A stretch of 64,000 nt of DNA. Origin: Oculina patagonica (lineage: Eukaryota). Location: assembly GCF_052425735.1 (NCBI RefSeq), contig NC_135763.1:17374298-17438297 (forward strand). Reading direction: 5' to 3'. Each line of letters starts with the position of its first letter. Position 1 is the stretch's first letter. The notes beneath the pieces are model-generated. The model did no database searches. It was given only the letters and a program-made list of their open reading frames with translations, and was not told the origin of the DNA. The translations under genes and the position numbers were made by a program. This document shows, piece by piece, positions 1 to 61,537 of this stretch.

Positions 1-2019
1 TCTGTTAACCCCAAGGTTTGTTAGAGACATACCTTAATCCTTTATGTAGAAGAATCTCTGAAATTCTGCTCGAAGTATCTCACAATCGTGGAGACTATTC
101 TTTATTTTCTCTTTTGCTTTCGATCGTACGAACTTCACAAAAGCGGCCAGAAGCACCGCGGACGTTGTAAACACCTTTTTAGGGTGTTGTAAACTCTTTT
201 ATCTGCTCAACACAGGAAAGCACGGGTGTTGTTTCATTGGCAGGAAGCAAGTCTCGCGTTTTCTCGCCGAAAATTTCACGCTCGCGTGAAGCCGCCATGT
301 TTGTTTTGATTTGCCGGCATTTCAAGCTCGCCCTTTCGTACCCATTCTTCGCGCGGTCAAGAAACCCTATAGAGCCACCTTAAGTAGTCCAAGTGAATTC
401 AGCCTGGAATACTTGTGAAATCGCTCTACAATATATATAGTAATTTACGTTGCACAAGATCAGCTAAAGTCGCCTTAAGCGCCGAAAATCGCCTTAAGTC
501 ACCATGTTTTTTTGCCAATTTTGCTAAAGTCGCCTTAAATCGCCTAAAGTCGCCCAAAGTTATGGCGACTTTAGGTCCCAGAGTAGGCCTTTTTTACGTA
601 ACAACACCTGACACCGATGTAAACAACCAAAGCAGGAATACAAAATCAAGGGAAAAAGTACGAATTTGCAATTCTGCCAAAAAAACTAAAAAAATTGAAT
701 TATGTGGAAACAGTCGATATTTGGCCAAACACACAATGTTATGCAAGACAAAATTTATTCACGTCGAAATGTTATTCTCAATTTAAGCTGTTGTAACCAT
801 GTAGAAGGAGTCAGAAAAGAAATGTGGTGTATAATGAACGTACTATAAAGAATAAAATGAAATTTTACTTTGTCATTGGAAAAAAAATTTAAAACAATTA
901 AATCCCGTTTTTAAGTTTGAGAAACGATCGATCCTTAGTTTACCCATCAATCATTACTTTTTTGCCGTGACCTGTGTAAAAACTATCCACGCGCTGTATT
1001 ATTTGTGTTAATTTAACTTTCATTTTTTTTCCTCAAACAATGTACGACAGTTAATTGTTTATGAAGGTATTAGTATTCTTATTTACAGTATGTAATTTTT
1101 GGAAGAAGGATGCAAGAGTAAGAGAAAGAGAAAGATAAGTTTCTCCGTGCGTTTCATTACCTTCTTTTCTTTTCATTACCTCATTTTCCCTTCCATTTCT
1201 CCAGTGATGCTTTCCACCGCGTGTTCCGTTATACGCAACCCAGTGCGCCCCCCCCCCCCCCTTTGGGTTCCCTTGTTTCCCTCCTCCGTTCCCCACTGCA
1301 TTTGCTTTGGGTTCCACCATTCGTTCGCTCGTCGTGGTTTACTTATGCGTCAGTTTAAAGTGTACACGTTTATGCTACGTGGGGCTTAAAGCGGTAAAAA
1401 AAATATATATATCAGCGACAAAAAAAAAATCATTTTTGTCACTGATTGTTTGTTAGACGTTTCGGGTAATCCGTAAGCCTAATAATGGCGAGTTGGTTAC
1501 ACGCTTTTTGAGATAACGTAACGCAAGGCCTTCGCGCGTGACCATAAACGTTACCCACTGAATCTCGCCTCAGGTACAACATCACTAACGATTTTAAAAT
1601 CCATGCAGTGATTAAATAAATAAAATGGCCTTTAAGCTTGAGCCAAATTACCACGAGTGACTTCTCTACGGTAGACCCAAACGCTGCTTCAACTCATAAT
1701 CCCAGAAGGTCGAAACTCTTGACTAATTGTATCCGATAGTTCTTTTTTGGAGCTATTTTTCAGTTTCTGTCTTATTTCATATCACGGTTTTTTTGTTTTA
1801 TTTTATTTTTATTTTTAATTTAACTTCAATGGTAAGTTTTTACAGTTTTCTTCACAGAAGGTGAGAGTTCACGTGGTTTTTTTACGGTGATTATTTTCCG
1901 GTCGATGAATAAGCTAGGTAGAGTTGCTGAAAATCTTGGGGTCAACAAAACAATGGTAGTTCGTCTAAAGTTTTTGCCGCACCATGTTCTATGTTATTAT
2001 TATACTTATATTTTGCCCA

Positions 2020-3560: not shown

Positions 3561-3762
3561 TTCCTTACTTTCAAAGATTTCAATTTCTTGTTTAAAAACC
3601 AGTTTCAATTTTTTGGAATCTTACTTTTTTTTGGTGGAGAGTGCTATCGTGAATGTAAATTGTCTGCAGAACACGAAAAGTGGAGGTTATGATGCCTGTG
3701 ATCTCACAATCTCATGACCACAAAGGCTCACAAAGCTACCACAAAGTTAAGAGCGAGCTTAC

Positions 3763-4133
3763 CTTTATTTTCTTTTGATACCCTCCTTGCCATAAACCAG
3801 GAATATTGTACGTGTACACTGTTTCAGACTCCTCACTCAGAATAGAGTCTTTTGCTCGAAAAACAAACATTGCCTGCTCCATGGAGAGCTGATGAAGGTC
3901 ATAAAATAAAACATATTTTTGCATGTTTTTTTGTTTAAATATTGGTGACTGGTACTTTGTCCAACGTTTTAGCAGATTGTACTCATGAGGGATGTTAACC
4001 TCTGGGTGAGCGTCCAATATGGCGGCCACTAAGCTGTGACTACTGCGAGGATATCCAATAAACATCACAAATGTCTCCACTTCATCGTACACTTTAAAGA
4101 GTTTCTCCGCAGGAGAAAGGAGAGGCGTTTCTT
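3763..4133 (-). CDS. Sulfotransferase-like gene A, exon 2 (EETPLLSPAEKLFKVYDEVETFVMFIGYPRSSHSLVAAILDAHPEV...). It carries a 5'PSB-like P-loop (GYPRSSHS).
   Basis: A phase-1 acceptor ctttttgcag| matches the exon 1 donor phase. The donor is aag|gtaagc. A paralog at 9002-9384 gives the same acceptor phase. Confidence 0.6.
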
Positions 4134-4426
4134 CTGCAAAAAGAAAACTGTAACTCATCTTTCAAAACACTGAGTATTTTTATCTTACTCTGGTTTAACT
4201 GCAGAATACCCCACCATCCTTTAGCTCTTTCCAAAAACGTGGATACGCAGTGGTTGACATCGTACTTGCCGAGTGGCTACGCGGTGATCTAAATTTTTTT
4301 GGAGCTTTTACTTGAGAAAGGAACAAAATTAGAAAAGATCCAAGGGGTACTTGAAACCCGAGGACGGTCTTAACCTGATCCAACCTGTTCAGCCTGCGGG
4401 AAGAAGTTGACATCTTCTTTACTTAC

Positions 4427-4610: not shown

Positions 4611-7600
4611 CTTTAAAACGTATCTGAAAATGAAAAAATACGGTAAATTGCATTAAAGTATTTAGACGGAATCCGCCAGGACTTCGAGTACTTAATAATT
4701 TTTAAATATATTTTTTTCCAATTGAATTGGAAAAAAATATGTACCAAAATTATTTACATCTCATTGCAAGCTTCTGCGTTACTGTTTCAAATATCTTACC
4801 GAGAGAAATCATTTCTAGCAACACAAAAAATAAAAAACAAAGTTTGTGCACGTGACATTCGTATTGGTAATCAAATGGTGACGAGTGAAATTAGGAAATA
4901 ATTTCACGCGCGTTTTGTCAAAATGCCAGCTAATAATTTCCCGAGCCTTAAGCATACATTTTGCTCAAGCTCGCAAGTGTTTTAGTCTTTGAAGAAAACC
5001 TTTTAGAAATTCCTTTTTGCTGCTGAAAAAAAGTTTCAAAGATGAATCAACTGTCAATTATTTCTCACATTATGACCGTAGTTCGTCTTGAATGAACTGA
5101 AAACGTTGCCCATGTAAAACGCTCAAAAATCCGCTCGATGCCATTTAGTCACTCACTCACTCACTGCCTATTGTGCCCACTGGCACGTAGGACAGCATTT
5201 AGGCAATTGGCTTAAGTCTTGAAGTCGTTTTGACGTTTTGAAATATAAAATATCATCAAAAGCTTTATTACATGACCAAGGCTAGCTGGCTAAGGTGAAA
5301 TTCAAGCGAAAATGTACAAAGTTTAAGCTTTAAAACATCTTTTATTACGGACGCCATCTTGTCGCTTACTACGTTGCCATGGCAATTTTATAATTTCACA
5401 AGTGAAATTATAAAACGTTAAAATTTCGCGCCAAAGTTAAGGAGTAATTTGTCACCTATGATATTATTATAATAATCCCCGTTACGTGAAGCCGAGTAAC
5501 AATGGCCGTTTTCACACTAAAAACGAACAAATCGTCTCAGTGTGAAAACGGGACGAACATGGTTTTGGACGCGCAAGTCGTCTGAATTTCTCCATCGATT
5601 TGGCCGTCTGGGAAGACGATTTTTTGAGGACGCCGACTTGGTCGTATGGACGGACAAGTCGTCTAAAAATTCACACTAGACGAACAAATCATCGGACGAC
5701 TTGTCCATCTGGAAAATTCCAGTTTTATGACATCGCGACAGCTTGGCGATCGAGGGTGAAACTTTTCTACTTTATCTTCCTTCTTCATGAAGCCTTAAAG
5801 AAAGTCCAAAGGAAAACATCTCGCTCTTTGAGAAGAAACGTCCTTTCTCTACACTAGACAGGAATTTTGGATAAATTTGAATCGTTTAAACTGGTAAATT
5901 TTGCGTTCTTTGGTTCGATTGTTGACCTTGCTTTGCGAACAATCGGTCTGGTAGTATCAAATGGAACAGTAAATTTCCGGTCATTCTAGGAAAAACGGGA
6001 AAAAGGGAATACCTCTGAAGGTTTTTCTTTTATTCCGAAAAAATTCCAAAAAAGAACAGCCCCTTCCATTTGATTTTCCACCGAAACAACCGGTTTTTCC
6101 ATTCAAATGTAAAGCCTAAATACACGGAGATGTTTTCAAGCCAAGGTTGTCAAATAAAATTTTCAAGCTAATTAACTAAGACTCCTTCCAATTCTTTAAA
6201 TTTTCCGTCGTTATTAAGAAAGAAAAATACATTTAAAGGTATTATTTTATGCATTCACATAACCAAGTTTACAAATTCATTTAGTTTCCGACCGTGACAA
6301 CGGCGGTTGCCTTTACAAGAATTCAGAATTTACGTGGCCGCTTGATCATGAATTTTCATATCATACATATCAGTATAAAATAGAATAAATGAATGTTTTC
6401 TTTCCTTTTCTTTTTTTGATTGTCAGTGTTGTCATTATAAGATTCTGGTCATGCGAGTCTTGTTTGATTATTATACCGGCCATTCATTTATCAATTTATA
6501 GCAGGAGCCCGCTCTTGTTAATAGCAGCTGTGATAAAAAAAAAAAAAAAAAAAACTACTTCCAAATTCTAATTCGATCGGGAAAACACGGCCCAAGAAGC
6601 TTCTCTGAGCTTCAAAATGACAGCCGTGTTTAAGTACAGGTAAGGTAAGGTGATGCGAGAGAAAATTTATGTTACACCATCAACGATCTAGAGTAAAACT
6701 GTAAACGACGAAAATTGATTAAATTAAAAACAAAAATACATTTAAAAATAAAATTGCTCATCGGCGTTCGCATTTACCACGATGCAAATTATTTACAGTT
6801 AGGTCGGCTCTAAGAAACAAATTTAAAAACTAACTTTAGGAGTCAAACTGCCTGATCCTACCTGATTCTTCCCTGGCAATGATACAGCGTACTGGTGAAG
6901 TTGATCCTATCTTGAGGACGGTTATTTAAATCAAGTGATAGTGGGGGATATGCTAAAATGTGGTCTTTCTAATTGATAACATCTCGAATTAGGTTATTGG
7001 CTGCCTCACATGAATGGCTAGTTCCCATCAAGAGTACAATAGAACAAACAACATGAACAATGCCCCTAGCTCCAGAAATTAACAATACCAACGGCTACAC
7101 CAGAGGACCAATAGAATAATTAAGCTTCATAGAACTTGTTTTTTCGACAATTCGCCAACATACCGACGAAAAGACCTTTTTCGCTTGGGCGTTTTGTTGC
7201 CCCATTACAGACCATGTGATGATACTCTTGAGAATTTTTGCTTTCAAATTTTCAAATAGTCGCGTGTATATTTAACAATTATCCTGCGAAATCGCGCGGA
7301 ATTTCGCCTGTTATTTGCCGCGGGGCCGTGGGCGGGGTTGGCTAAAATAAGATATTTTTTCCCGAATTTGGGGAGAATTTTTTTTTTTTTTTTTAATATT
7401 TTTTAAAAAAAAATTTTTTTGAAAAAAAAAAAATTTTTAAAAGGCTTAAAAATTTTCAGAATTCTAACCCTATTTTCAGGTATATTTTTTATAGGAAAAA
7501 AAGAAATAAATTACAGGGGGGGGGGGCGCCGAAAAAAATGAATAGATTTTATGTGGACAAAAGGAAAATTCTCTAGAGAACATCACGTGGTCTGTAATGG

Positions 7601-8082
7601 GAAAACAAACCGCCCAAGCGAAAAAGGTCTATTCGAAGACCGACCAAAAATATTCGAACTTTGTTTTCCACGATCCGAACTTCCTGACATGAAGAGTTGG
7701 AATCCGGGCAAAAATTCTCAGCTTATCCGTGATACGCTCAATGTATCGCAAAAAAAATCCACAGTCTGTGCGCTTTTTAAGGCTAAATCCGTCGATCTGC
7801 GAACCTATTCGCCCCCCCCCCCCCCTCATGAAATCACATGGACATCGTGAGATGATAACAACATGAATGATTTTGTTCGCAGTATCAAAGAAAATGCCGT
7901 TCCTCGCCATCAATTGTGAATCCTCAATAGTGATATACCCGCTGATAAGGTCCAAAGGCAGTCAATTTTTTGGTAACATTGTATTTTATTGTAAATAATA
8001 AAGATGGTAAATTTTGCTCGGTAATAAATAATGAAGATGAAGTATTCAACATGACACGAGCATGGGACAAAGAAAAATTCTG

Positions 8083-8156
8083 AGTCCCCGACGGGAATCG
8101 AACCCATGGCCTCCCAGATACCGGTTGGGCGCTCTAACCAACTGAGCTACGAGAGA
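8083..8156 (-). tRNA. tRNA-like Pol III unit, left arm of a 345-bp palindrome. It has a D-arm TAGCTCAGTTGGTTAGAGC and a T-arm GGTTCGATTCC. The anticodon loop is CCGGTAT, with GGT at positions 34-36 if read canonically. The acceptor stem is imperfect, so this is possibly a tRNA pseudogene or SINE head.
   Basis: Canonical D and T arms. A 4-bp anticodon stem with an A31·C39 mismatch. It is followed by a T-run (aattttt). Confidence 0.45.
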
Positions 8157-8235
8157 CTCGTTGTGAGCTGGGCCATTAATTTTATCAACCAAGTGTCACT
8201 TATCAACCTAGTACAATGGCCCAGCTCACAACGAG

Positions 8236-8309
8236 TCGCTCGTAGCTCAGTTGGTTAGAGCGCCCAACCGGTATCTGGGAGGCCATGGGTTCGATTCCCG
8301 TCGGGGACT
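8236..8309 (+). tRNA. tRNA-like Pol III unit, right arm of the same palindrome. It is the mirror copy of 8083-8156.
   Basis: Same as the left copy. The arms 8025-8172 and 8223-8370 are near-perfect reverse complements. Confidence 0.45.
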
Positions 8310-8650
8310 CAGAATTTTTCTTTGTCCCATGCTCGTGTCATGTTGAGTACTTCATCTTCATTGTATTTTATTTTATCTAAAACATTTTGACTCATGATCT
8401 TTTTCATATTGTTTGTACATGTTTCATGTTAAAAATTTTGAAATGATTGGCAATCCGACCATCCCAGGATATAAATTCTGCCCAACAATAGTCTCGCAGA
8501 TCCGGCTGTTTTACGCAAAAGTGCAGCCACTGTAAACGCGAAGACTTGTCTGAGCCGCGCGGTTCCTGACTCGTTCCCAGTGCTTGATATTTATCCTCCT
8601 CTCATTTGATTTGTTTGCTTACCAGGAAACATGCATCTTAATTAAACTAA

Positions 8651-8809
8651 TTACTTGTAATATAAAACACAGACTACAATGTTTGGGCAAAACAGTTTAT
8701 TGACTAGCAGACTAACAGCATCTCCATACCGTTCCTTATCACGTTGGTTGGCGGCTGCCATTCCAAAGTAGCTTTTAATTGCCCAGTCAAGTTCTCTTGC
8801 GTTGTTTAT
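8651..8809 (-). pseudogene. Sulfotransferase-like paralog B, truncated last-exon fragment. The exon 3 equivalent is missing. Homology ends after ...ERYGDAV and a stop follows soon after.
   Basis: It aligns to 2255-2358 of gene A with the same acceptor (ttaacgacag|). It diverges right after that, and no exon 3 homolog lies between 8810 and 9001. Confidence 0.45.
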
Positions 8810-9001
8810 CTGTCGTTAAGAAAACAATCAAACAAACAAGTTGCCATCAATTTAAGTAACGCCGTCATAGAATGGTGGAATACTAATCGCTCTGACAATT
8901 TCAATCCTACTTGTTCGGAAATTCTTAATACGAAGAGTGAACATTAACAGTACTCGTCATTTCCATTTTGTGATCTCACACTACAATGCCAGTACAAAAG
9001 A

Positions 9002-9384
9002 CGACCTTACCTTTATTTTCTTTAGATATCCCCCTTGCCACAAACCAGGAATATTGTACGTGTACACTGTTTCAGACTTACTAGTCCGGAGAGAGTTATT
9101 TGCTCGAATGTCAAACATGGCCTGTTCAAAGGAGAGTTGATGAAGGTCATAAAATAGAACGAATTTTTGTAGGTTTTTCTGTTTTAGTTCTGGTGACTGG
9201 TACTTTGCCCAATTTGCAAGCACATTGTACTCATGAGGGATGATAATCCCTGGGTGAGCGTCCAATATGGCGCCCACCAAGCTATGACTGCTGTGAGGAT
9301 ATCCAATGAACATCACAAATGTCTCCACTTCATCGTACACTTTGAAGAGTCTTTCTGCAGGAGAAAGGAAAGGCGTTTCATCAT
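9002..9384 (-). pseudogene. Sulfotransferase-like paralog B, exon 2 (DETPFLSPAERLFKVYDEVETFVMFIGYPHSSHSLVGAILDAHPG...). It is intact in frame.
   Basis: It is about 75% aa identical to gene A exon 2. It has the same phase-1 acceptor (ttcttttgcag|) and a donor aag|gtaagg. The track's M is a TTG. Confidence 0.55.
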
Positions 9385-9444
9385 CTGCAAAAGAATCAAT
9401 CAACGCAGTTGAGTTATTTTCATAGGCCGTTTCTTAACTTCTTC

Positions 9445-9897: not shown

Positions 9898-11488
9898 ACT
9901 TCTTCTTGGTTCGCAGCATTAACGATTTACATTTCTCAAACTTAATAATAATTCTTCAAGTTAAAACAATGAAAATCATAACTGTACCCGTTCTTATTAA
10001 GAATTGTTTTTTAACGATATATTGCTCCGTTTAATCCGTAGGTTTTGTTTCGATTGAGGAGATACCGGTATATCAAACACTCGAGACTGTGTTTCATCGA
10101 CTATTCAAACACCTCGATCGAATTTCGTCAAAAATACTCCGCTGCGCTTTGTATTTTCAACTACTCTTCTCGCTGTTTGGATATCCCGATGAAACACTGT
10201 CTCTCGTGTTTAATATATTACATATAGAGCTGCTTGGCTGATTTGAAGAACAGACCATTTGCATGAATGAATGATAAAGGTTCTTATATAGCGCATTTAC
10301 AGAGCTCAATACGCTTCACAATTCGAATTATGGGATGAGACCGGACATCAGCATATCATGACGTAACGCACAAAGACTTCGGTAGTTGTAGTAAAGCTTG
10401 CGGGAAATTTTGACTCGTCATCAAGCCCACTCAGGGGAGCCCAAGAAAATTGTGATGGAGGTTACTCTCACCGAAGAAACCGGGGTTCGGGCTTTAAAAT
10501 AAAGTGGAGTGCAAATCATTTTGGATCTGTGGCCCATATTTAGTGGAACCAAAGGCTCCATCCCCCTAGGGATGAAAAGTTGAAGCCTCTTAGGCGTAAT
10601 TTCCGCGATTCTGAGCAGCTTTATACAGCTGTCGATTAGGGTATTAAAACACTGTTCTTCCTTGATAATTTGGCAATATATTTTTTCTTCAACTTACCTT
10701 GAGTTATATTTCGGAAAAAACGTCTACTTCTTATGAAGTGAACAGTGATTGAAATTTAAAGTTGACAAGCCAGGAACTTACAGGAAAGAACAGATATTTT
10801 TTTTTTGTTCACCCACGTGCGTGAAAATTTTTAGCCCTTGGCAAAGTGGCCTGAGAACAACTTTGGCGACTTTGCTTGCTTTTGAAATCGCTTCGATGCG
10901 AGAAAACGGTACAAAAACTCGCTAAAAAAAAGATGTAAATGGAGAAGAAAATCATTCCAGCTAGGCTAAAACAACTGTTGAAAGTTAAAAGGAATCTAAT
11001 TTTTTTAAAATTGTACGCACATGTTTTGTTTTATTAAGCCAGAAGTTCATAAAATGGGCCTTTTGAAAATCTCCTTTCTTTTGAAAAATGGCCTTTCTTA
11101 ACTTTGAACGGCCGCCTGACTATGTAGGGTGGATGGACATTGTCCTTATTTCCTATTTTAATTTGTTTATTTTTATTTTTCTGGTGGATCAAGAGGGGTG
11201 GCTAGCCACCCAATCCACCCCCCTGGATCCGCCCCTGAGTTTGGCAGTGTTTGGTTGAATCTTGGAAAAGTTATAAGCGTTCAAAGTCAACGCAGGCCTC
11301 AAAAGCTCCCCCCCCCCCCCCCCCGGGGTCTGAATAGGGTTAAATAAAGTTTATTGTATTGTATTTGTATTGAGATATAAGGCTAAAATTATTTACAAAA
11401 ATCCTCGATGTCGGCCTAGAGGAATGAATTTCTACCGAGTCAACTCAGCCAACGTACATAAACTTCGCCACACAACGTACATAACTTA

Positions 11489-21177: not shown

Positions 21178-24100
21178 TTTGCATGAAGGTAGTCCTTATT
21201 AAAACTAAAAACGTTATGTTGTTTCTTTCTTCAAATATTTTTATTTTTCTGAGAAAAACGAAATTTTTTGATTTGACATCTAGACTCGTCTAGACTCGAT
21301 TGAGAGGGTACAAATTGGGTTGAAAATTGACCATTTTCAATCGATTCGTATGTCAAAACCATCACGCGCAGAAAAAAATAAATACAACCGGTCTATTGCA
21401 TAACTCTTCCTTGTCGAAATAAGCATAGTTTCAAGAGTTTTGGTTTAATCTAATTATTTTACGGTAAACAAAACCAGACTATTCTCACGCGAAATGAAAG
21501 TCGGTCGGTCAAAAGAATCGTCATTTTCACTATGTGCCTTATCTCAGAATTCCTTGAGATAAATATATTTCAACTGTAGAAGGATGATACTTTCAAAATA
21601 TTTAAAGTTTTGTCTGGGTAAATGATTAAGCACTTGTCAAAAAATTATTCAAAATCGTACAAAAACGACACAAAATCACGCAAGCTTTCGAATGCGTGAC
21701 CAAAAGTATTACCAACGTATTTGTTCTTTAAATCAATTTAGTCGCAACACTAGCAATACCAAGGCATAAATCATAATAAATATGTTCACCTTTGCTTGAT
21801 TATGATATCCTGTCCCATGCAATACGTTCTTTCCTGTCATTTCTTCAATGGCTTCCCGTTCAGTTCGCATGCCGCTTGTCGAATCCGTCTGCGACTGGTG
21901 AATTTGAAGCAACCACCGATACGAGTTTAACCAAATATGTATCGTCATGATTAACAAGCCCTTTTTGTGTTACTTGATTAAGCCATATTTCAGGTTATAG
22001 CCGGCAAAGCGTTTTCGATAAGCCACTTTGCAGTGCCTGTTGGCACCGTTATTATTCGAAGTGAAGTATAAATTTGCATACTTTCGAGACAAGCGTGACA
22101 GTTTTTTATACTTAGGGGGTGGGGTGAGGAAGGGTCTTAAATTTTTAGATGAATCAAATGTTTGAAAACGTTTGGGGATGAATTGTCACAAACTAATACC
22201 GTATTTTACATGGGGATGTAGAAGAATTTCACAACGTCAAACCTGAACCCACGGCAACAAGGATACCAGTTTTCTGCAATATGACATTTGATATTTCTCT
22301 TCCTACATCTCTATCTCCTTTAGAAGTCTTCCCTTTACTGTGATAAGCAATCTCGTGAGGAACTTTGCATGTACTGGAACTTTTTCGCCATCCAATTCCA
22401 AGCTCGGATCGATGAAAGGGACAGATAGTAAAAGCGCTAACATCCTGTTGCTTGTTAAAGATACCTGGTGTTAATGGCGAACAGGAACTTATTCTCCTTA
22501 GAGCATGCTCTAAGGACATGTAAGGAGAATAAGTTCCTGTTCGCCATTAACACCAGCAAAAGACCAGAGGGACTTATGATTTTCTATATCCTTGTTACAT
22601 GGGCAAAGGGACCTCGGTTATTAATTTACTTTTATCGCGTCGATCATGCGAGCAAGGACTGCCAACTATCGTTTTAAAAGAACAAGAAACTTCCATGAGA
22701 CACCAAGTGCAGCGAGAACATGTGGAGTTTCCAACAGTTCACCAGACAACTGAAGGGAAAAGCACTTTACGGGGACTGTGTTGTGCCGGTTGCTCCACAA
22801 ATGGTTCGTGAGAAAAAAGAAATCATTCAAACATCTATAATCGAGTTTAGTAAATTACATTAGTCTCGTCTCCTAAAAGTAAACAACGTGAATTCTCGCA
22901 CACACAAGTTGAGGTCAATTATTTTACTTTGTTGTTTTGGAGAATAATGAAGTACATAACTGAATTATATGGTTTTTATAGAAGGAGCAACCAGCAATTA
23001 GTAGATTATAGACTACCACCAAACCGGAAACGAGAAGCAAACGACTTTTAGAAAGTCTAACTTTAATAGATTACAACACTCTTTCCTGACAGCGGCTTTT
23101 TGTCAATACTTTTACGGTTTTTCTCTCTTTGATTTTGAGCGTAAGCAGAACTTATAAGTAAAGTAAATCACGTAGCAAATACGAGTTTGTGACAATTCAT
23201 CCCCAAACGTTTTCAAACCATTGCTTCATCTAAAAATTTAAGACCCTTCCTCACCCCACCCCCTAAGTATAAAAAACTGTCACGCTTGTCTCGAAAGTAT
23301 GCAAATTTATACTTCACTTCGAATAATAACGGTGCCAACAGGCACTGCAAAGTGGCTTATCGAAAACGCTTTGCCGGCTATAACCTGAAATATGGCTTAA
23401 TCAAGTAACACAAAAAGGGCTTGTTAATCATGACGATACATATTTGGTTAAACTCGTATCGGTGGTTGCTTCAAATTTACTAGTCGCAGACGGATTCGAC
23501 AAGCGGCATGCGAACTGAACGGGAAGCCATTGAAGAAATGACAGGAAAGAACGTATTGCATGGGACAGGATATCATAATCAAGCAAAGGTGAACATATTT
23601 ATTATGATTTATGCCTTGGTATTGCTAGTGTTGCGACTAAATTGATTTAAATAACAAATACGTTGGTAATACTTTTGGTCACGCATTCGAAAGCTTGCGT
23701 GATTTTGTGTCGTTTTTGTACGATTTTGAATAATTTTTTGACAAGTGCTTAATCATTTACCCAGACAAAACTTTAAATATTTTGAAAGTATCATCCTTCT
23801 ACAGTTGAAATATATTTATCTCAAGGAATTCTGAGATAAGGCACATAGTGAAAATGACGATTCTTTTGACCGACCGACTTTCATTTCGCGTGAGAATAGT
23901 CTGGTTTTGTTTACCGTAAAATAATTAGATTAAACCAAAACTCTTGAAACTATGCTTATTTCGACAAGGAAGAGTTATGCAATAGACCGGTTGTATTTAT
24001 TTTTTTCTGCGCGTGATGGTTTTGACATACGAATCGATTGAAAATGGTCAATTTTCAACCCAATTTGTACCCTCTCAATCGAGTCTAGACGAGTCTAGAT

Positions 24101-30206: not shown

Positions 30207-31728
30207 AAATCTTAGCCTCAACAATGTTAAGGCATGGACTGGGAACCAGTCACAAAGTACCGAACGTCTTGAATACTTGGACATCACTGGAACAATCGAC
30301 TGGGTCCCGGATGAAAACATCCTTGTCCTTCCAAACCTCAAAGAACTCAGGGGGGTCACTTGGTGTAAATTTTGTCCCAACTGTACAGTGATCAACCCAC
30401 GAAATATTGTCAATGAGTCACAGAGAAAACAGAAGGCAGAGGAATGCCTTCGAGAGTTTAATGACATGAAGTTTCTGGAATTTGGGAAGGAGGATCCCAA
30501 AAGATTTATAAGACACCGATACTTGCCCGAATGCATGTGCGTAAAGCAATCGGAATGTGAGTTCCGCCATGTCGTGATGCCATACTTTATAAAGCATACC
30601 TCATTGCCACAGACGTTGTTTTACTTAGAGTATGCTCTAAGTCCTTTTACTATCCTTCTAAACATTGTCGTAATTGTAACAATTCTGACATCTCGCTCTT
30701 TGCGCAAGGTACCTTCATTTATCCTAATAGGTCACACGGGACTTACCGACCTCCTGACCGGTATTTACGCAATATGGGTGGCCCATGTTAACATCTCTAA
30801 CATTGATAGTGTTTTAGAAGAGGTTATGTGGGCAGGGAAAGAGCTGCAACCCTCAACTGGTCCAATCTTCATCTCTGGCCAACTGATCTCGGTTTCAATT
30901 TCATTGCTTCTTACACTTGAAAGATATCTTGCTGTTGTTTACTGTGTGAAGCCGTCCAAACGCATGACAGCGAAAAGTGCTCAAATCTCTTTGCTTTTTG
31001 CTTGGGCCATGGCTATCGCTTTTGCTGTCATGCCCGTATTTGGTGTCGGCGGTCTACATTACAACATCAAACGAGCTTGCGCTCCTTTGAGTTACGATGA
31101 GCAGTTCAAGTCAGGGTCCTCGCTGATTCTTCTGTTCTCTCTTGTTTTCATTGTGTTGCTGTATCTTGTAAATCTTCCTTTGTACTTCCAGCTTTTTAGG
31201 TTTGTTAAAAGAAGCAGTAACCAGGCTGGTGTCAAGCGAGAGATGTCTCTTGCCAGAAAAATCGCTTTTTTGGTTCTCACTAATTTCATTTTCTTTGCTA
31301 TACCCATAATCCTCATTCTTGTGTTCTCCATCTTTGCCAATCTTGACAGCAACCCGTTTGACTTTGAAGGCGATGCTTTCAAAAGCACCGTTTTCAAGAT
31401 TTCTATTGGCCAATGGCTCCCAGTCACGTGTCTGAATATCAACTCCCTATTGGACCCGTTTCTTTACGCGTTTAAACACACGCACTTTAGGCGGGAAATC
31501 AGGTGCAGATTCCATCGTCTTTCTAGAAAGGTCTTTCCATCTTTGGTTCCTTCATTGATGTTTAATTCCGTTGATGATTTTTCAGCGTCCAGTGCCCCAC
31601 GAACAAGAAAAATGTCAAGAATCGACGAGCAGTCGACCGGAAGTAAAGCCAAAAATAAAATTGTTCCTGTTGCCAACGAAGAATTGGAATTCCAAGAAAC
31701 ACATAAACAAGTCTCTAAATCAATGTAA
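30207..31728 (+). CDS. LGR-like GPCR terminal exon. It encodes 2 LRRs, an LRRCT (CKFCPNC), a cysteine-rich hinge, the 7TM rhodopsin-class domain (ERY at the TM3 end, DPFLY = NPxxY in TM7) and a C-tail of about 80 aa. The stop TAA is at 31726.
   Basis: The acceptor is ttattctttcctccacag|. A 483-aa ORF (30277-31728) runs in the same frame. Seven hydrophobic helices are visible, and E/DRY and NPxxY-type motifs are present. Confidence 0.8.
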
Positions 31729-41643: not shown

Positions 41644-41954
41644 CTGGACACAAAATAACGCGGAAAAGGATCCATGGTTAAAAGTAATAAAAAAAGTTAT
41701 TGATCTGTTGCACGTAGATGAAAAAAAAGATATATATTATATTAATGTAATTAGTTACTGACAATAAAATAAAAAAAAAATATGTTTTCTTTGCTACGCT
41801 TTTTATAATGGTGCATTAAAAAAGGGTGTGTCAGGGCAAACTTTCACTGCGTGTGTAGTGTAGGTGGACGCCTCGTATCGTCCTTGCAAAATGCTGCATA
41901 TAATAATCAAATTATTAACCATTCCATTTATAATAATGAAGGAAAACACATGTC

Positions 41955-42095
41955 AGTCAGTCAGTCAGTCAGTCAGTCAGTCAGTCAGTCGGTCGGTTGG
42001 TTGGTCGGTTAGTCAGTCAGTCAGTCAGTCAGTCAGTCAGTCAGTCAGTCAGTCAGTCAGTCAGTCAGTCAGTCAGTCAGTCAGTCAGTCTACAT
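41955..42095. repeat. (GTCA)n microsatellite of about 33 units with a few GGTC/GGTT variants.
   Basis: Read directly. Confidence 0.9.
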
Positions 42096-42167
42096 TTGTT
42101 GATTTTAGCAAAATGCAAAAACTAAAGAAATCTTCTTCTGTTAATGTTGCTGTGTGTAATTGTTTAC

Positions 42168-42246
42168 CTAATACCACCTGCCCTTTAGTGGCTCCCTGGT
42201 GATTGTCTCTGAGAACACTTGATAATCCAACAAGCACTAAACCTAA
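42168..42246 (-). CDS. SLC35F6-like copy 1 exon (LGLVLVGLSSVLRDNHQGATKGQVVL).
   Basis: It matches human IAGLVVVGLADLLSKHDSQHKLSEVITG. The acceptor is ttcgcag| and the donor is tta g|gtaaac. Confidence 0.6.
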
Positions 42247-60740: not shown

Positions 60741-61085
60741 ATATTAACAGCTTTAGACTGCAAGGTTAGAGGTTTTACACAGAAATGCTGAAATTACACA
60801 CAGGTAAAACCTTGCAAAAATCATTCTGATGTAATGTATATGAAATGATTCATATATGAACTGCGGATGTATATAAAAGTGATAAATTATCATCGCAGTG
60901 AAGCCCTGAAGTTTTTTCAGGCTTCTTTATTTCCAATTGCTTAAATTAGAAATTCACTGCGATGATCATTTATCACTTTCATATACATCCACAGTTCATA
61001 ATATGAATCATTTCATATACATTACATCATTTCACTCCTCTCACGGGAAAATATGAACTCACAGTTGACTTCGCTCCCAATGCGT

Positions 61086-61125
61086 GGCTTCAATAGCTCA
61101 GTTGGTAGAGCATCGCACCGGTATC

Positions 61126-61159
<34 letters not shown>
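61086..61159 (+). tRNA. tRNA-like gene with a perfect 7-bp acceptor stem (GGCTTCA/TGAAGCC). It has a D-arm TAGCTCAGTTGGTAGAGC, a T-arm ACGGGTTCGAATCCCGT, an anticodon loop CCGGTAT (Thr-GGU-like if canonical) and one extra nt before position 8. A T7 Pol III terminator follows immediately.
   Basis: The cloverleaf is readable by eye. The run ctgaattttttt follows directly downstream. The anticodon loop and the A31·C39 mismatch match the 8-kb units. Confidence 0.5.
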
Positions 61160-61337
61160 TGAATTTTTTTCAGGCTTCTTTATTTCCAATTGCTTAAATT
61201 GGAAATTCACTGCGATGATCATTTATCACTTTCATATACATCCGCAGTTCATATATGAATCATTTCATATACATTACATCATTTCACTCCTCTCACTGGA
61301 AAATATGAACTCACAGTTGACCTCGCTCCCAATGCGT

Positions 61338-61410
61338 GGCTTCAATAGCTCAGTTGGTAGAGCATCGCACCGGTATCGCGGAGGTCACAGGTTGAGTCCC
61401 GTTGAAGCCC
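61338..61410 (+). pseudogene. Tandem second copy of the 61-kb tRNA-like unit, with a degenerated T-loop (ACAGGTTGAGTCCCGT). It is a likely tRNA pseudogene.
   Basis: The 243-bp direct repeat 60906-61148 and 61149-61393 carries a second unit, which has a 1-nt deletion and substitutions in the T-arm. Confidence 0.45.
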
Positions 61411-61537
61411 TGAATTTTTTTCTAGGCTTCTTTATTTCCAATTGCTTAAATTGGAAATTCAATCACTGCGATGATCATTTATCACTTTAATAATCATTCT
61501 AGCACTTGGCTGTTTTCACTTTTTAACAAAAACTTAC

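Follow-up and report, generated by a model that had tools for sequence, protein, structure and literature searches.

Four transfer RNA (tRNA)-like units, grouped as one pair near 8 kb and another near 61 kb, lie in a 64,000-nucleotide (nt) stretch of the genome of the coral Oculina patagonica (contig NC_135763.1, positions 17,374,298 to 17,438,297 of the forward strand; hereafter the window, numbered from its first letter). We conclude, with a probability of about 60%, that these units are modules of two insertions of an abundant non-autonomous retroelement of stony corals, and that this element is moved by a Penelope-like reverse transcriptase/GIY-YIG endonuclease and not by a long interspersed nuclear element (LINE). 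The sequences themselves show the membership of the family, the anatomy of the unit, the duplications at the insertion sites, the pattern of end points and the covariation, whereas we infer both the Penelope-like partner, which is read from the anatomy of the insertions, and the role of the tRNA-like module. Our literature search found nothing on this sequence, and what it found on short interspersed nuclear elements (SINEs) of corals and other cnidarians consisted of general SINE surveys.

tRNA-like units of the window

ARAGORN called exactly four tRNA-like genes in the window, each as tRNA-Thr(GGT), and all four score 35.0-50.5 bits with the Rfam tRNA model RF00005, above its gathering score of 29 bits (Table 1). 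A reading of the sequence alone had proposed four tRNA-like RNA polymerase III (Pol III) units with an odd common anticodon arm, and both observations hold: every unit contains ACCGGTATC, which comprises the loop CCGGTAT, with C at position 33, and a non-pair of A31 with C39 that Rfam marks with 'v'. None of the four has the U33 and closed 31-39 pair of a canonical tRNA. The 9-mer ACCGGTATC occurs five times in the window against 0.23 expected; the fifth site, at 10061-10069, lacks tRNA-like context, and we take it for a chance match. An Rfam search with E-values up to 1 returned no further tRNA-like unit and no ribozyme in the window, and we dismissed the sub-threshold matches to microRNA (miRNA) and small RNA models as noise.

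The units differ in their state of preservation. Unit 61086-61159 has the perfect 7-bp acceptor stem (GCTTCAA/TTGAAGC) and the T7 run (61164-61170) that had been noticed in the letters, together with intact A and B boxes. Since both boxes and the T-run are intact, its transcription is plausible from its sequence; intact copies of this kind would have every requirement of a Pol III gene, and their predicted RNA, about 80 nt long, would end in the T-run. In unit 61338-61410 the B box/T-loop is damaged and the T arm broken. The units of the 8-kb pair have degenerate acceptor stems, their Rfam alignments cover only model positions 4-67, and their fold is no better than that of shuffled sequence (z = +0.26). 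Three of the four window units, and the consensus sequences of the family described below, contain the Pol III boxes TAGCTCAGTTGG and GGTTCGANTCC.

A repeat family of stony corals

We scanned metagenome contigs with the pattern CCGGTATN5AGGN5GGTTCGANTCC, which fixes only the 7-nt loop, the AGG and the B box; it does not demand A31 or C39, and subfamilies lacking the 7-nt loop are invisible to it. The motif is not unique to the window, since the pattern matched at least 120 contigs. Among the matches listed, nearly all come from coral metagenomes and all but one (L003, discussed below) are coral host DNA, and each listed coral match has conserved sequence on either side of the cloverleaf, with the motif ...GACC(T/A)(C)GCTCCCA... 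upstream and a T-run, two hairpins and ACTGCGATGATC downstream; none is a stand-alone gene. The odd arm thus marks a large repeat family and not a set of tRNA genes, in keeping with the earlier suspicion that these are not standard eukaryotic tRNAs. Subfamily A is the type of the 61-kb pair. B and C are common subfamilies and E and F less so; D, the type of the 8-kb pair, is rare, with a distinct 3' region common to loci L020 and L026.

The family seems to span distantly related stony corals. Chromosome CM071738.2 of Montipora capricornis carries three copies, one with CCGGTAT, within 26 kb around the orthologue of a receptor gene of the window; that gene, represented by the open reading frame (ORF) 30277-31728, resembles follicle-stimulating-hormone-receptor-like proteins, with 71% identity between the window species and Montipora capricornis and 65% to Acropora muricata; the one 100% match was in the Logan assembly of SRR27962760. 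ARAGORN called almost all family loci tRNA-Thr(GGT), or AGT where the CpG has decayed. The abundance of such calls fits reports of thousands of low-confidence tRNA predictions in corals: for Porites harrisoni, 5,938 putative tRNAs were reported, of which 674 were kept as high confidence, along with 20,234 SINE elements. The family is probably behind a good share of these predictions. In genome annotation, such loci are best masked as repeats and left out of tRNA-Thr gene counts.

It would be possible to read the units as functional, lineage-specific tRNA or tRNA-like genes, for instance a coral tRNA-Thr(GGU) with an unusual loop, carried in duplicated DNA. Like tRNA-Thr(GGU) genes they have a cloverleaf, GGT at the anticodon position and A37. 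Both programs called all four units tRNA, unit 61086-61159 has its acceptor stem, boxes and T7 terminator, the loop is almost unchanged across the family, and compensatory changes keep the cloverleaf intact between subfamilies (see below). Nonetheless, every coral match listed sits in the same repeat, the near-universal U33 is replaced by C33, positions 31 and 39 are A and C in all representatives aligned, the 8-kb units are degenerate, unit 61338-61410 has lost its B box, and target-site duplications (TSDs) bound both clusters. Moreover, ACC is normally decoded otherwise in eukaryotes, by tRNA-Thr(AGU, I34). With conserved flanks on every coral match, no unit qualifies as a stand-alone gene. 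The loci are explained as repeat copies and not as novel tRNA genes, and we regard the functional-gene reading as extremely unlikely.

The single non-coral match among those listed, L003 (ENA metagenome contig OBLW0100255623.1), carries three tRNAs on one strand, at 183-255(-), 682-756(-) and 908-1000(-), with an HNH-endonuclease-like ORF between; tRNA-Pro and tRNA-Arg accompany a tRNA-Thr(GGT) on this contig. Its tRNA-Thr(GGT) is a free-standing, perfect cloverleaf (59.3 bits) that has the CCGGTAT loop with C33 but a closed 31-39 pair, and its tRNA-Arg(ACG), of 92 nt, has a 21-nt insertion in the region of the D arm. We considered this locus as a source gene and rejected it, since the contig is bacterial- or phage-like and its tRNA cluster has no relation to the coral family. 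Other tRNA-like repeat heads, with different loops, occur in the coral contigs L028, at 581-653(+), and L027, at 7244-7293(-). The former, with the loop ACTAGATCA and 47.1 bits, was called tRNA-Ser by ARAGORN; it could belong to a family of its own or be related to subfamily D, with its CpG decayed. Many short-read metagenome contigs start or stop within the cloverleaf, close before the loop; L015, L019, L026, L041 and L042, among others, start 6-8 nt before CCGGTAT. Such ends indicate that assemblers break in the repeat, so short-read contigs that cross it may be chimeric.

Unit anatomy and covariation

The repeat unit is about 250 bp long, and we number it from ACTGCGATGATC, the start of its tail (Table 1). 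The cloverleaf is internal: about 110 nt of conserved sequence precede it, a conserved run of T5-T7 follows after 4-5 nt, and the element continues past this run. Hence, of the suggestion that the units are heads of a tRNA-derived SINE family, membership of a repeat family stands, whereas the position at the 5' head does not. Hairpin 1 is formed by the acceptor 3' strand plus TGA(A), which pairs with sequence just past the T-run and so places the run in its loop. The paired sequences differ between subfamilies: GAAGCC.TG/CAGGCTTC in A, AGGCCTGAA/TTCAGGCTT in B, CAGAGCCTGAA/TTCAGGTCTCTG in E and GGGAC/GTCCC in D. In hairpin 2 the loop GCTTA is constant and the stem varies (TTCCAATT/AATTGGAA, CACAACT/AGTTGTG, TTCAACC/GGTTGAA, and ACGCAATT/AATTGCGT in Montipora). 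Both hairpins therefore stay paired despite sequence change in subfamilies A, B, C, D, E and F and in Montipora. In the RNA predicted from 61086-61206 (121 nt) both hairpins form, with z = -3.84.

The cloverleaf itself also covaries. Across 12 subfamily representatives, 89.6% of cells are paired, against 26-51% with slid partners; 10 of the 21 pairs have changed on both sides, and the covariation score was reached by none of 500 shuffles. This covariation between subfamilies indicates that the fold matters in the source copies. Within it the 9-nt ACCGGTATC is conserved as sequence, with A and C at positions 31 and 39 in 12 of 12 representatives and a 7-nt loop that is almost unchanged. The tRNA-like module may serve as a Pol III promoter or small-RNA gene, or as a structural or processing signal in RNA. 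From its sequence, the loop ACCGGUAUC could be a functional site, for instance one where loop-loop RNA dimerisation would favour template switching, or one that the reverse transcriptase or a processing enzyme would recognise; RNA pairing between loops is possible because ACCGGUAUC holds the self-complementary ACCGGU. The almost unchanged loop and the hairpin that encloses the T-run are thus specific candidates for function.

A reading frame begins at the ATG of the conserved ACTGCGATGATC and spans unit positions 7-134 (window 61215-61340). Subfamilies A and B keep this frame open over 35-42 codons, whereas C has it closed and a Montipora copy lacks it; in no case does it run into a long ORF. 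Public collections contain at least 50 clusters of short 'proteins' that gene callers derived from frames of this kind.

Two insertions in the window

The 8-kb pair had been taken for a perfect 345-bp palindrome at the break point of a truncated sulfotransferase paralogue. Neither part of this description fits the sequence. The structure consists of two arms of 156 nt each, 8022-8177 and 8215-8370, which are 97% complementary and separated by 37 non-palindromic bases; the identity of the arms is 98.6% over 144 nt, and one arm reaches 43 nt beyond the other. Homology to the other sulfotransferase copy stops at 8713, about 340 bp from the repeat. An exact 14-bp duplication, CATTGTATTTTATT, abuts the structure on both sides. 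The 43-nt extension at 7991-8033 is homologous to the 3' region of the subfamily D copy L026, and in the short arm the GGGAC/GTCCC hairpin encloses the T-run at 8315-8319. We conclude that 7991-8358 is a single insertion and not a local rearrangement or a duplication break point.

The 61-kb pair belongs to a tandem repeat with a 252-bp period and 2.3 copies (60899-61492). Its two full units are 96.8% identical to each other and about 90% identical to consensus A by blastn. An inverted, 5'-truncated arm of 75 nt adjoins the array on its left, and the whole is flanked by AATCATTC, so that the cluster is a single insertion comprising one inverted arm and 2.3 tandem units. Neither cluster is a local rearrangement, because each has a TSD of its own and the same architectures recur at unrelated loci.

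Family-wide insertion pattern

We mapped the ends of arms by blastn of two consensus sequences onto 121 loci and the window, which gives end points that are approximate for divergent subfamilies. The 3' ends form two clusters, with 15 arms ending at positions 21-30 and 38 arms at positions 61-80. The 5' ends are widely scattered, with an enrichment at positions 101-140, just upstream of the cloverleaf (43 of 113 arms); some templates may start there and read through the T-run, although these end points are approximate. Where both flanks of an array are present, 26 of 87 arrays are of mixed orientation, all 26 head-to-head and none tail-to-tail, and 61 are of a single orientation. Tandem multimers are common (2.3 units in the window, nearly 3 in L073, 2 in L040 and 1.8 in L103), and many copies comprise 1.1-1.3 units.

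Exact TSDs of 7-15 bp abut the repeat in ten insertions, both window clusters among them. Nine of these are dimers: the two in the window and those at L017, L027, L037, L055, L058, L107 and L119. In each of the nine, one outer end is ...CACTTT(CA) at positions 24-26 and the other is ...CACAT(CA) at 73-75, so that the two 3' termini are spaced by 49 nt, or by 43 nt in the 8-kb dimer. The termini have no poly(A) or simple-repeat tail, and the inner junctions of inverted arrays vary from copy to copy. Another possibility, that RNase P or RNase Z generates the ends by cutting the cloverleaf, was considered and rejected, because the termini at 24-26 and 73-75 do not coincide with the cloverleaf borders at about 135 and 208. 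The family thus has the dispersed high copy number, TSDs and 5' truncation of SINEs.

Could the arrays have arisen at the level of DNA, as a miniature inverted-repeat or foldback DNA transposon, as a satellite formed by unequal crossing-over, or as a palindrome left by a break in the sulfotransferase duplicate? Long inverted arms, the 252-bp period of the 61-kb array, the proximity of the 8-kb structure to the truncated paralogue and a short inverted motif, GTGAAG, common to both termini would all be in line with such an origin. However, TSD length is not fixed between insertions, a variation unlike that of any one DNA transposase known to us; most copies are of a single orientation and 5'-truncated, so that one 'terminal repeat' is missing; inner junctions differ between copies; the same architectures occur at unrelated loci in other corals; and the homology between paralogues ends at 8713 and not at the repeat. 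Variable TSD length, 5' truncation and differing inner junctions instead point to target-primed reverse transcription, and we consider a DNA-level origin very improbable.

Mobilisation by a LINE or a Penelope-like element

If the family moves by target-primed reverse transcription, its partner could be a LINE, for instance of the L2/CR1 or RTE types that are abundant in corals. The family would then be a classical tRNA-derived SINE, with twin priming as the origin of the inverted dimers, and with template switching, or older tandem arrays that are transcribed, as the origin of the tandems. Much of its anatomy is compatible with this reading. Like SINE2-type elements, among which are SINE2-2_Adi, Styp and other coral and cnidarian families, it has a tRNA-related module with intact A and B boxes, many dispersed copies, 5' truncation with fixed 3' ends, TSDs of variable length and a host group rich in SINEs and pseudo-tRNA calls, which run to thousands in coral genomes (as exemplified by Porites harrisoni). 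Near its 3' end the element has a covarying stem-loop whose loop is conserved, as in LINE and SINE tails, where a stem-loop is recognised by the reverse transcriptase, and 5' ends are overrepresented shortly before the tRNA-like part. L1 twin priming, reportedly described by Ostertag and Kazazian in 2001, gives an inversion with 5' truncation inside one TSD, and the coral dimers resemble its products in their head-to-head arms with 3' ends outward, their single TSD and their variable inner junctions.

In other respects the fit to LINE-driven movement is poor. The internal priming site of L1-type twin priming is essentially arbitrary, whereas the second priming site of the coral family is fixed within 1-2 nt in nine of nine TSD-flanked dimers, 43-49 nt from the first. 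The tRNA-like part is internal, and its conserved upstream sequence and immediately following T-run are a misfit for a Pol III SINE transcript. Tandem multimers and two fixed 3' ends set the family apart from tRNA-derived SINEs, as does the lack of a poly(A) or simple-repeat tail, and we saw no LINE with the same tail, nor any LINE-derived tail, in the window or the 121 loci. Finally, a one-sided tail is reported to be specific to Penelope-like elements (PMC8557442, PMC11167929). We therefore regard a LINE partner as possible but doubtful.

The insertions resemble those of Penelope-like elements and their non-autonomous derivatives, such as animal non-LTR (long terminal repeat) retrozymes and the Chlamys-derived MRC1, in several features: 5' truncation, partial or multi-copy head-to-tail tandems, an adjoining inverted and 5'-truncated copy in head-to-head arrangement, a one-ended tail of 30-50 nt with two fixed sites of reverse-transcription start, TSDs that are short, variable and sometimes absent, and precise 3' ends without poly(A). 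Frequent 5' truncation, partial tandems (pseudo-LTRs) and an adjacent inverted 5'-truncated copy have been described for Penelope-like insertions, as has a 'tail' of 30-40 bp at one end only, a pattern stated not to occur with non-LTR elements (PMC8557442). In Adineta vaga, these elements have TSDs of 8-10 bp or none, a tail of 31 bp and a head-to-head arrangement as the commonest form, and their pseudo-LTRs alone are enough for mobilisation in trans (PMC3846280). [quoted passage not shown] Penelope-like clades Neptune, Naiad and Hydra are present in Acropora millepora, and animal retrozymes have been argued to be non-autonomous Penelope-like derivatives.

We propose that copies of the coral family would be made by reverse transcription primed on nicked target DNA, with synthesis of complementary DNA (cDNA) that begins in the tail, at either of two fixed sites of the unit (24-26 or 73-75). 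Synthesis would often stop early, which would give the variable 5' ends, and would often run over more than one unit, which would give the tandem arrays. Priming by both DNA strands, in about a third of insertions, would produce a head-to-head dimer whose two ends, one short and one long, lie inside a single TSD; the 8-kb pair at 7991-8358 is a dimer of this form. We rank a Penelope-like partner above a LINE because the second priming site is fixed to the base, one end always carries an extra 43-49 nt, and complete tandem units, with the roughly 110 nt that precede the cloverleaf, are copied through the T-run. As copies span both sides of this run, the predicted Pol III RNA of about 80 nt cannot be the template for transposition.

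Several observations weigh against this proposal. No long ORF follows the conserved ACTGCGATGATC in the 121 loci, and we found no autonomous Penelope-like element that shares sequence with the family: a HMMER scan of 1.84 billion protein representatives with the 40-residue frame from 61215-61334 returned only short, repeat-derived ORFs of 55-269 amino acids. The tail, at 43-49 nt, is slightly longer than the published 30-40 bp. A hammerhead ribozyme was not found in the window, either at the gathering score or with E-values up to 1; the Naiad and Chlamys clades of Penelope-like elements likewise lack canonical hammerhead ribozymes (PMC8557442). Many single-orientation copies have no clear TSD, possibly as a result of chimeric short-read contigs, of TSD-free integration or of something else, and the end points, taken from blastn with two consensus sequences, are approximate for divergent subfamilies. 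The T-run right after the tRNA-like part should stop Pol III, yet the copied RNA spans both sides of it. Lastly, twin priming by a LINE likewise yields head-to-head inversions within one TSD. In searches for a partner of either kind, LINE or Penelope-like, blastn of the unit against the window matched only the two known clusters, and the tail motif outside repeat arrays led to no partner element.

In the absence of a ribozyme match in the window we rejected a strict retrozyme, defined by a hammerhead and a circular RNA. Relative to known Penelope-like derivatives, the coral family differs in its longer tail, in having no hammerhead found in the window and in carrying a full tRNA-like Pol III module with a terminator-like T-run; we found no description of such a module, of a tRNA-bearing Penelope-type element or of this family in the literature. 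It is tempting to see here an undescribed class of short, non-autonomous elements with Pol III/tRNA-like modules, moved by Penelope-like retrotransposons and carrying a covarying cloverleaf in place of the retrozyme hammerhead, although we think this unlikely. The family is very likely already present, perhaps misclassified, in coral repeat libraries, and we consider it a moderately interesting variant for which no published description was found.

TRIMp3 elements (Cassandra, Helenus and Ajax) are LTR retrotransposons that are non-autonomous and whose terminal repeats each contain a 5S- or tRNA-like Pol III sequence (PMC10886601). Like them, the coral family is a non-autonomous retroelement other than a SINE whose repeated terminal part holds a module resembling a Pol III small-RNA gene, and it inflates tRNA predictions; it lacks their true LTRs, primer-binding site, polypurine tract and fixed TSDs of 4-5 bp. 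If the Penelope-like partner is correct, Pol III/tRNA-like modules would have been recruited by a third class of retroelement, after LINE-dependent SINEs and the LTR-type TRIMp3. Penelope-like elements are the least understood class of retrotransposon, and an abundant element of 250 bp with two base-precise start sites of reverse transcription and clean TSDs would offer a compact natural substrate for studying tandem and inverted insertion and the origin of the 'tail'.

Table 1. Coordinates of the two insertions, their tRNA-like units and the parts of the repeat unit
Feature	Positions	Strand	Details
8-kb insertion, left TSD CATTGTATTTTATT	7977..7990	.	exact 14-mer, repeated at 8359-8372, abuts insert
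8-kb insertion, long arm of head-to-head dimer	7991..8177	-	rare subfamily D; holds unit 8082-8157(-)
8-kb insertion, 43-nt 3' extension ('tail') of long arm	7991-8033	-	absent from short arm
8-kb insertion, A-run in long arm	8073-8077		T5 on element strand
tRNA-like unit, 8-kb pair	8082-8157	-	RF00005 41.4 bits
8-kb insertion, inner junction/spacer between two 5'-truncated arms	8178..8214	.	partly upstream region of + arm
8-kb insertion, short arm	8215..8358	+	about 20 nt conserved upstream; unit 8235-8310; T5 8315-8319; short 3' end
tRNA-like unit, 8-kb pair	8235-8310	+	RF00005 41.4 bits
8-kb insertion, right TSD CATTGTATTTTATT	8359..8372	.	exact 14-bp direct repeat
61-kb insertion (60827-61491), left TSD AATCATTC	60819..60826	.	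11 nt if one mismatch allowed
61-kb insertion, inverted 5'-truncated arm	60827..60899	-	unit positions 1-75, long ('tail') 3' end; blastn vs consensus A; inverted repeats I1, I2, I4
61-kb insertion, start of direct array	60899..60955	+	unit positions 197-251; acceptor 3' strand end, T6, hairpin 1, hairpin 2
61-kb insertion, full unit 1	60956..61207	+	5' region 60956-61085; tRNA-like 61086-61159; hairpin 2 61182-61206
tRNA-like unit, 61-kb pair	61086-61159	+	RF00005 50.5 bits
61-kb insertion, T7 run of full unit 1	61164-61170	+	in loop of hairpin 1
61-kb insertion, full unit 2	61208..61460	+	tRNA-like 61338-61410; T7 61415-61421; hairpin 2 61434-61458
tRNA-like unit, 61-kb pair	61338-61410	+	RF00005 35.0 bits
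61-kb insertion, terminal partial unit	61461..61491	+	unit positions 1 to ~24 plus AAT; short 3' end of insertion
61-kb insertion, right TSD AATCATTC	61492..61499	.	matches 60819-60826
Repeat unit, tail	unit 1-75		starts ACTGCGATGATC
Repeat unit, 5' region	unit 76-134
Repeat unit, cloverleaf	unit about 135-207		73 nt, Pol III A and B boxes
Repeat unit, T-run	unit about 212-218		T5-T7
Repeat unit, two hairpins	through unit 251

Neighbouring sequence

One sulfotransferase-like copy lies at 2262-2402 and 3749-4145, the second at 8713-8857 and 8990-9395. Assignment to this class is weak, resting on a match to Sulfotransfer_3 with a Pfam E-value of 8.5e-4, below the cut-off. The second copy has kept its N-terminal exon (85.5% nucleotide identity) and only the first 43 or so codons of its C-terminal exon, and its intron is about 133 bp long against about 1.35 kb in the other copy. 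At 22462-22559, hairpin-like matches on both strands fall well below the gathering scores of the miRNA models mir-4841 (40.9 of 100 bits) and MIR7996 (37.8 of 119 bits), and this segment is probably an inverted-repeat element and not a miRNA. Finally, 41941-42020, within ORF 41864-42202, is a short-period tandem repeat that reads (SVSQ)n in one frame, a simple repeat that is unlikely to be coding.

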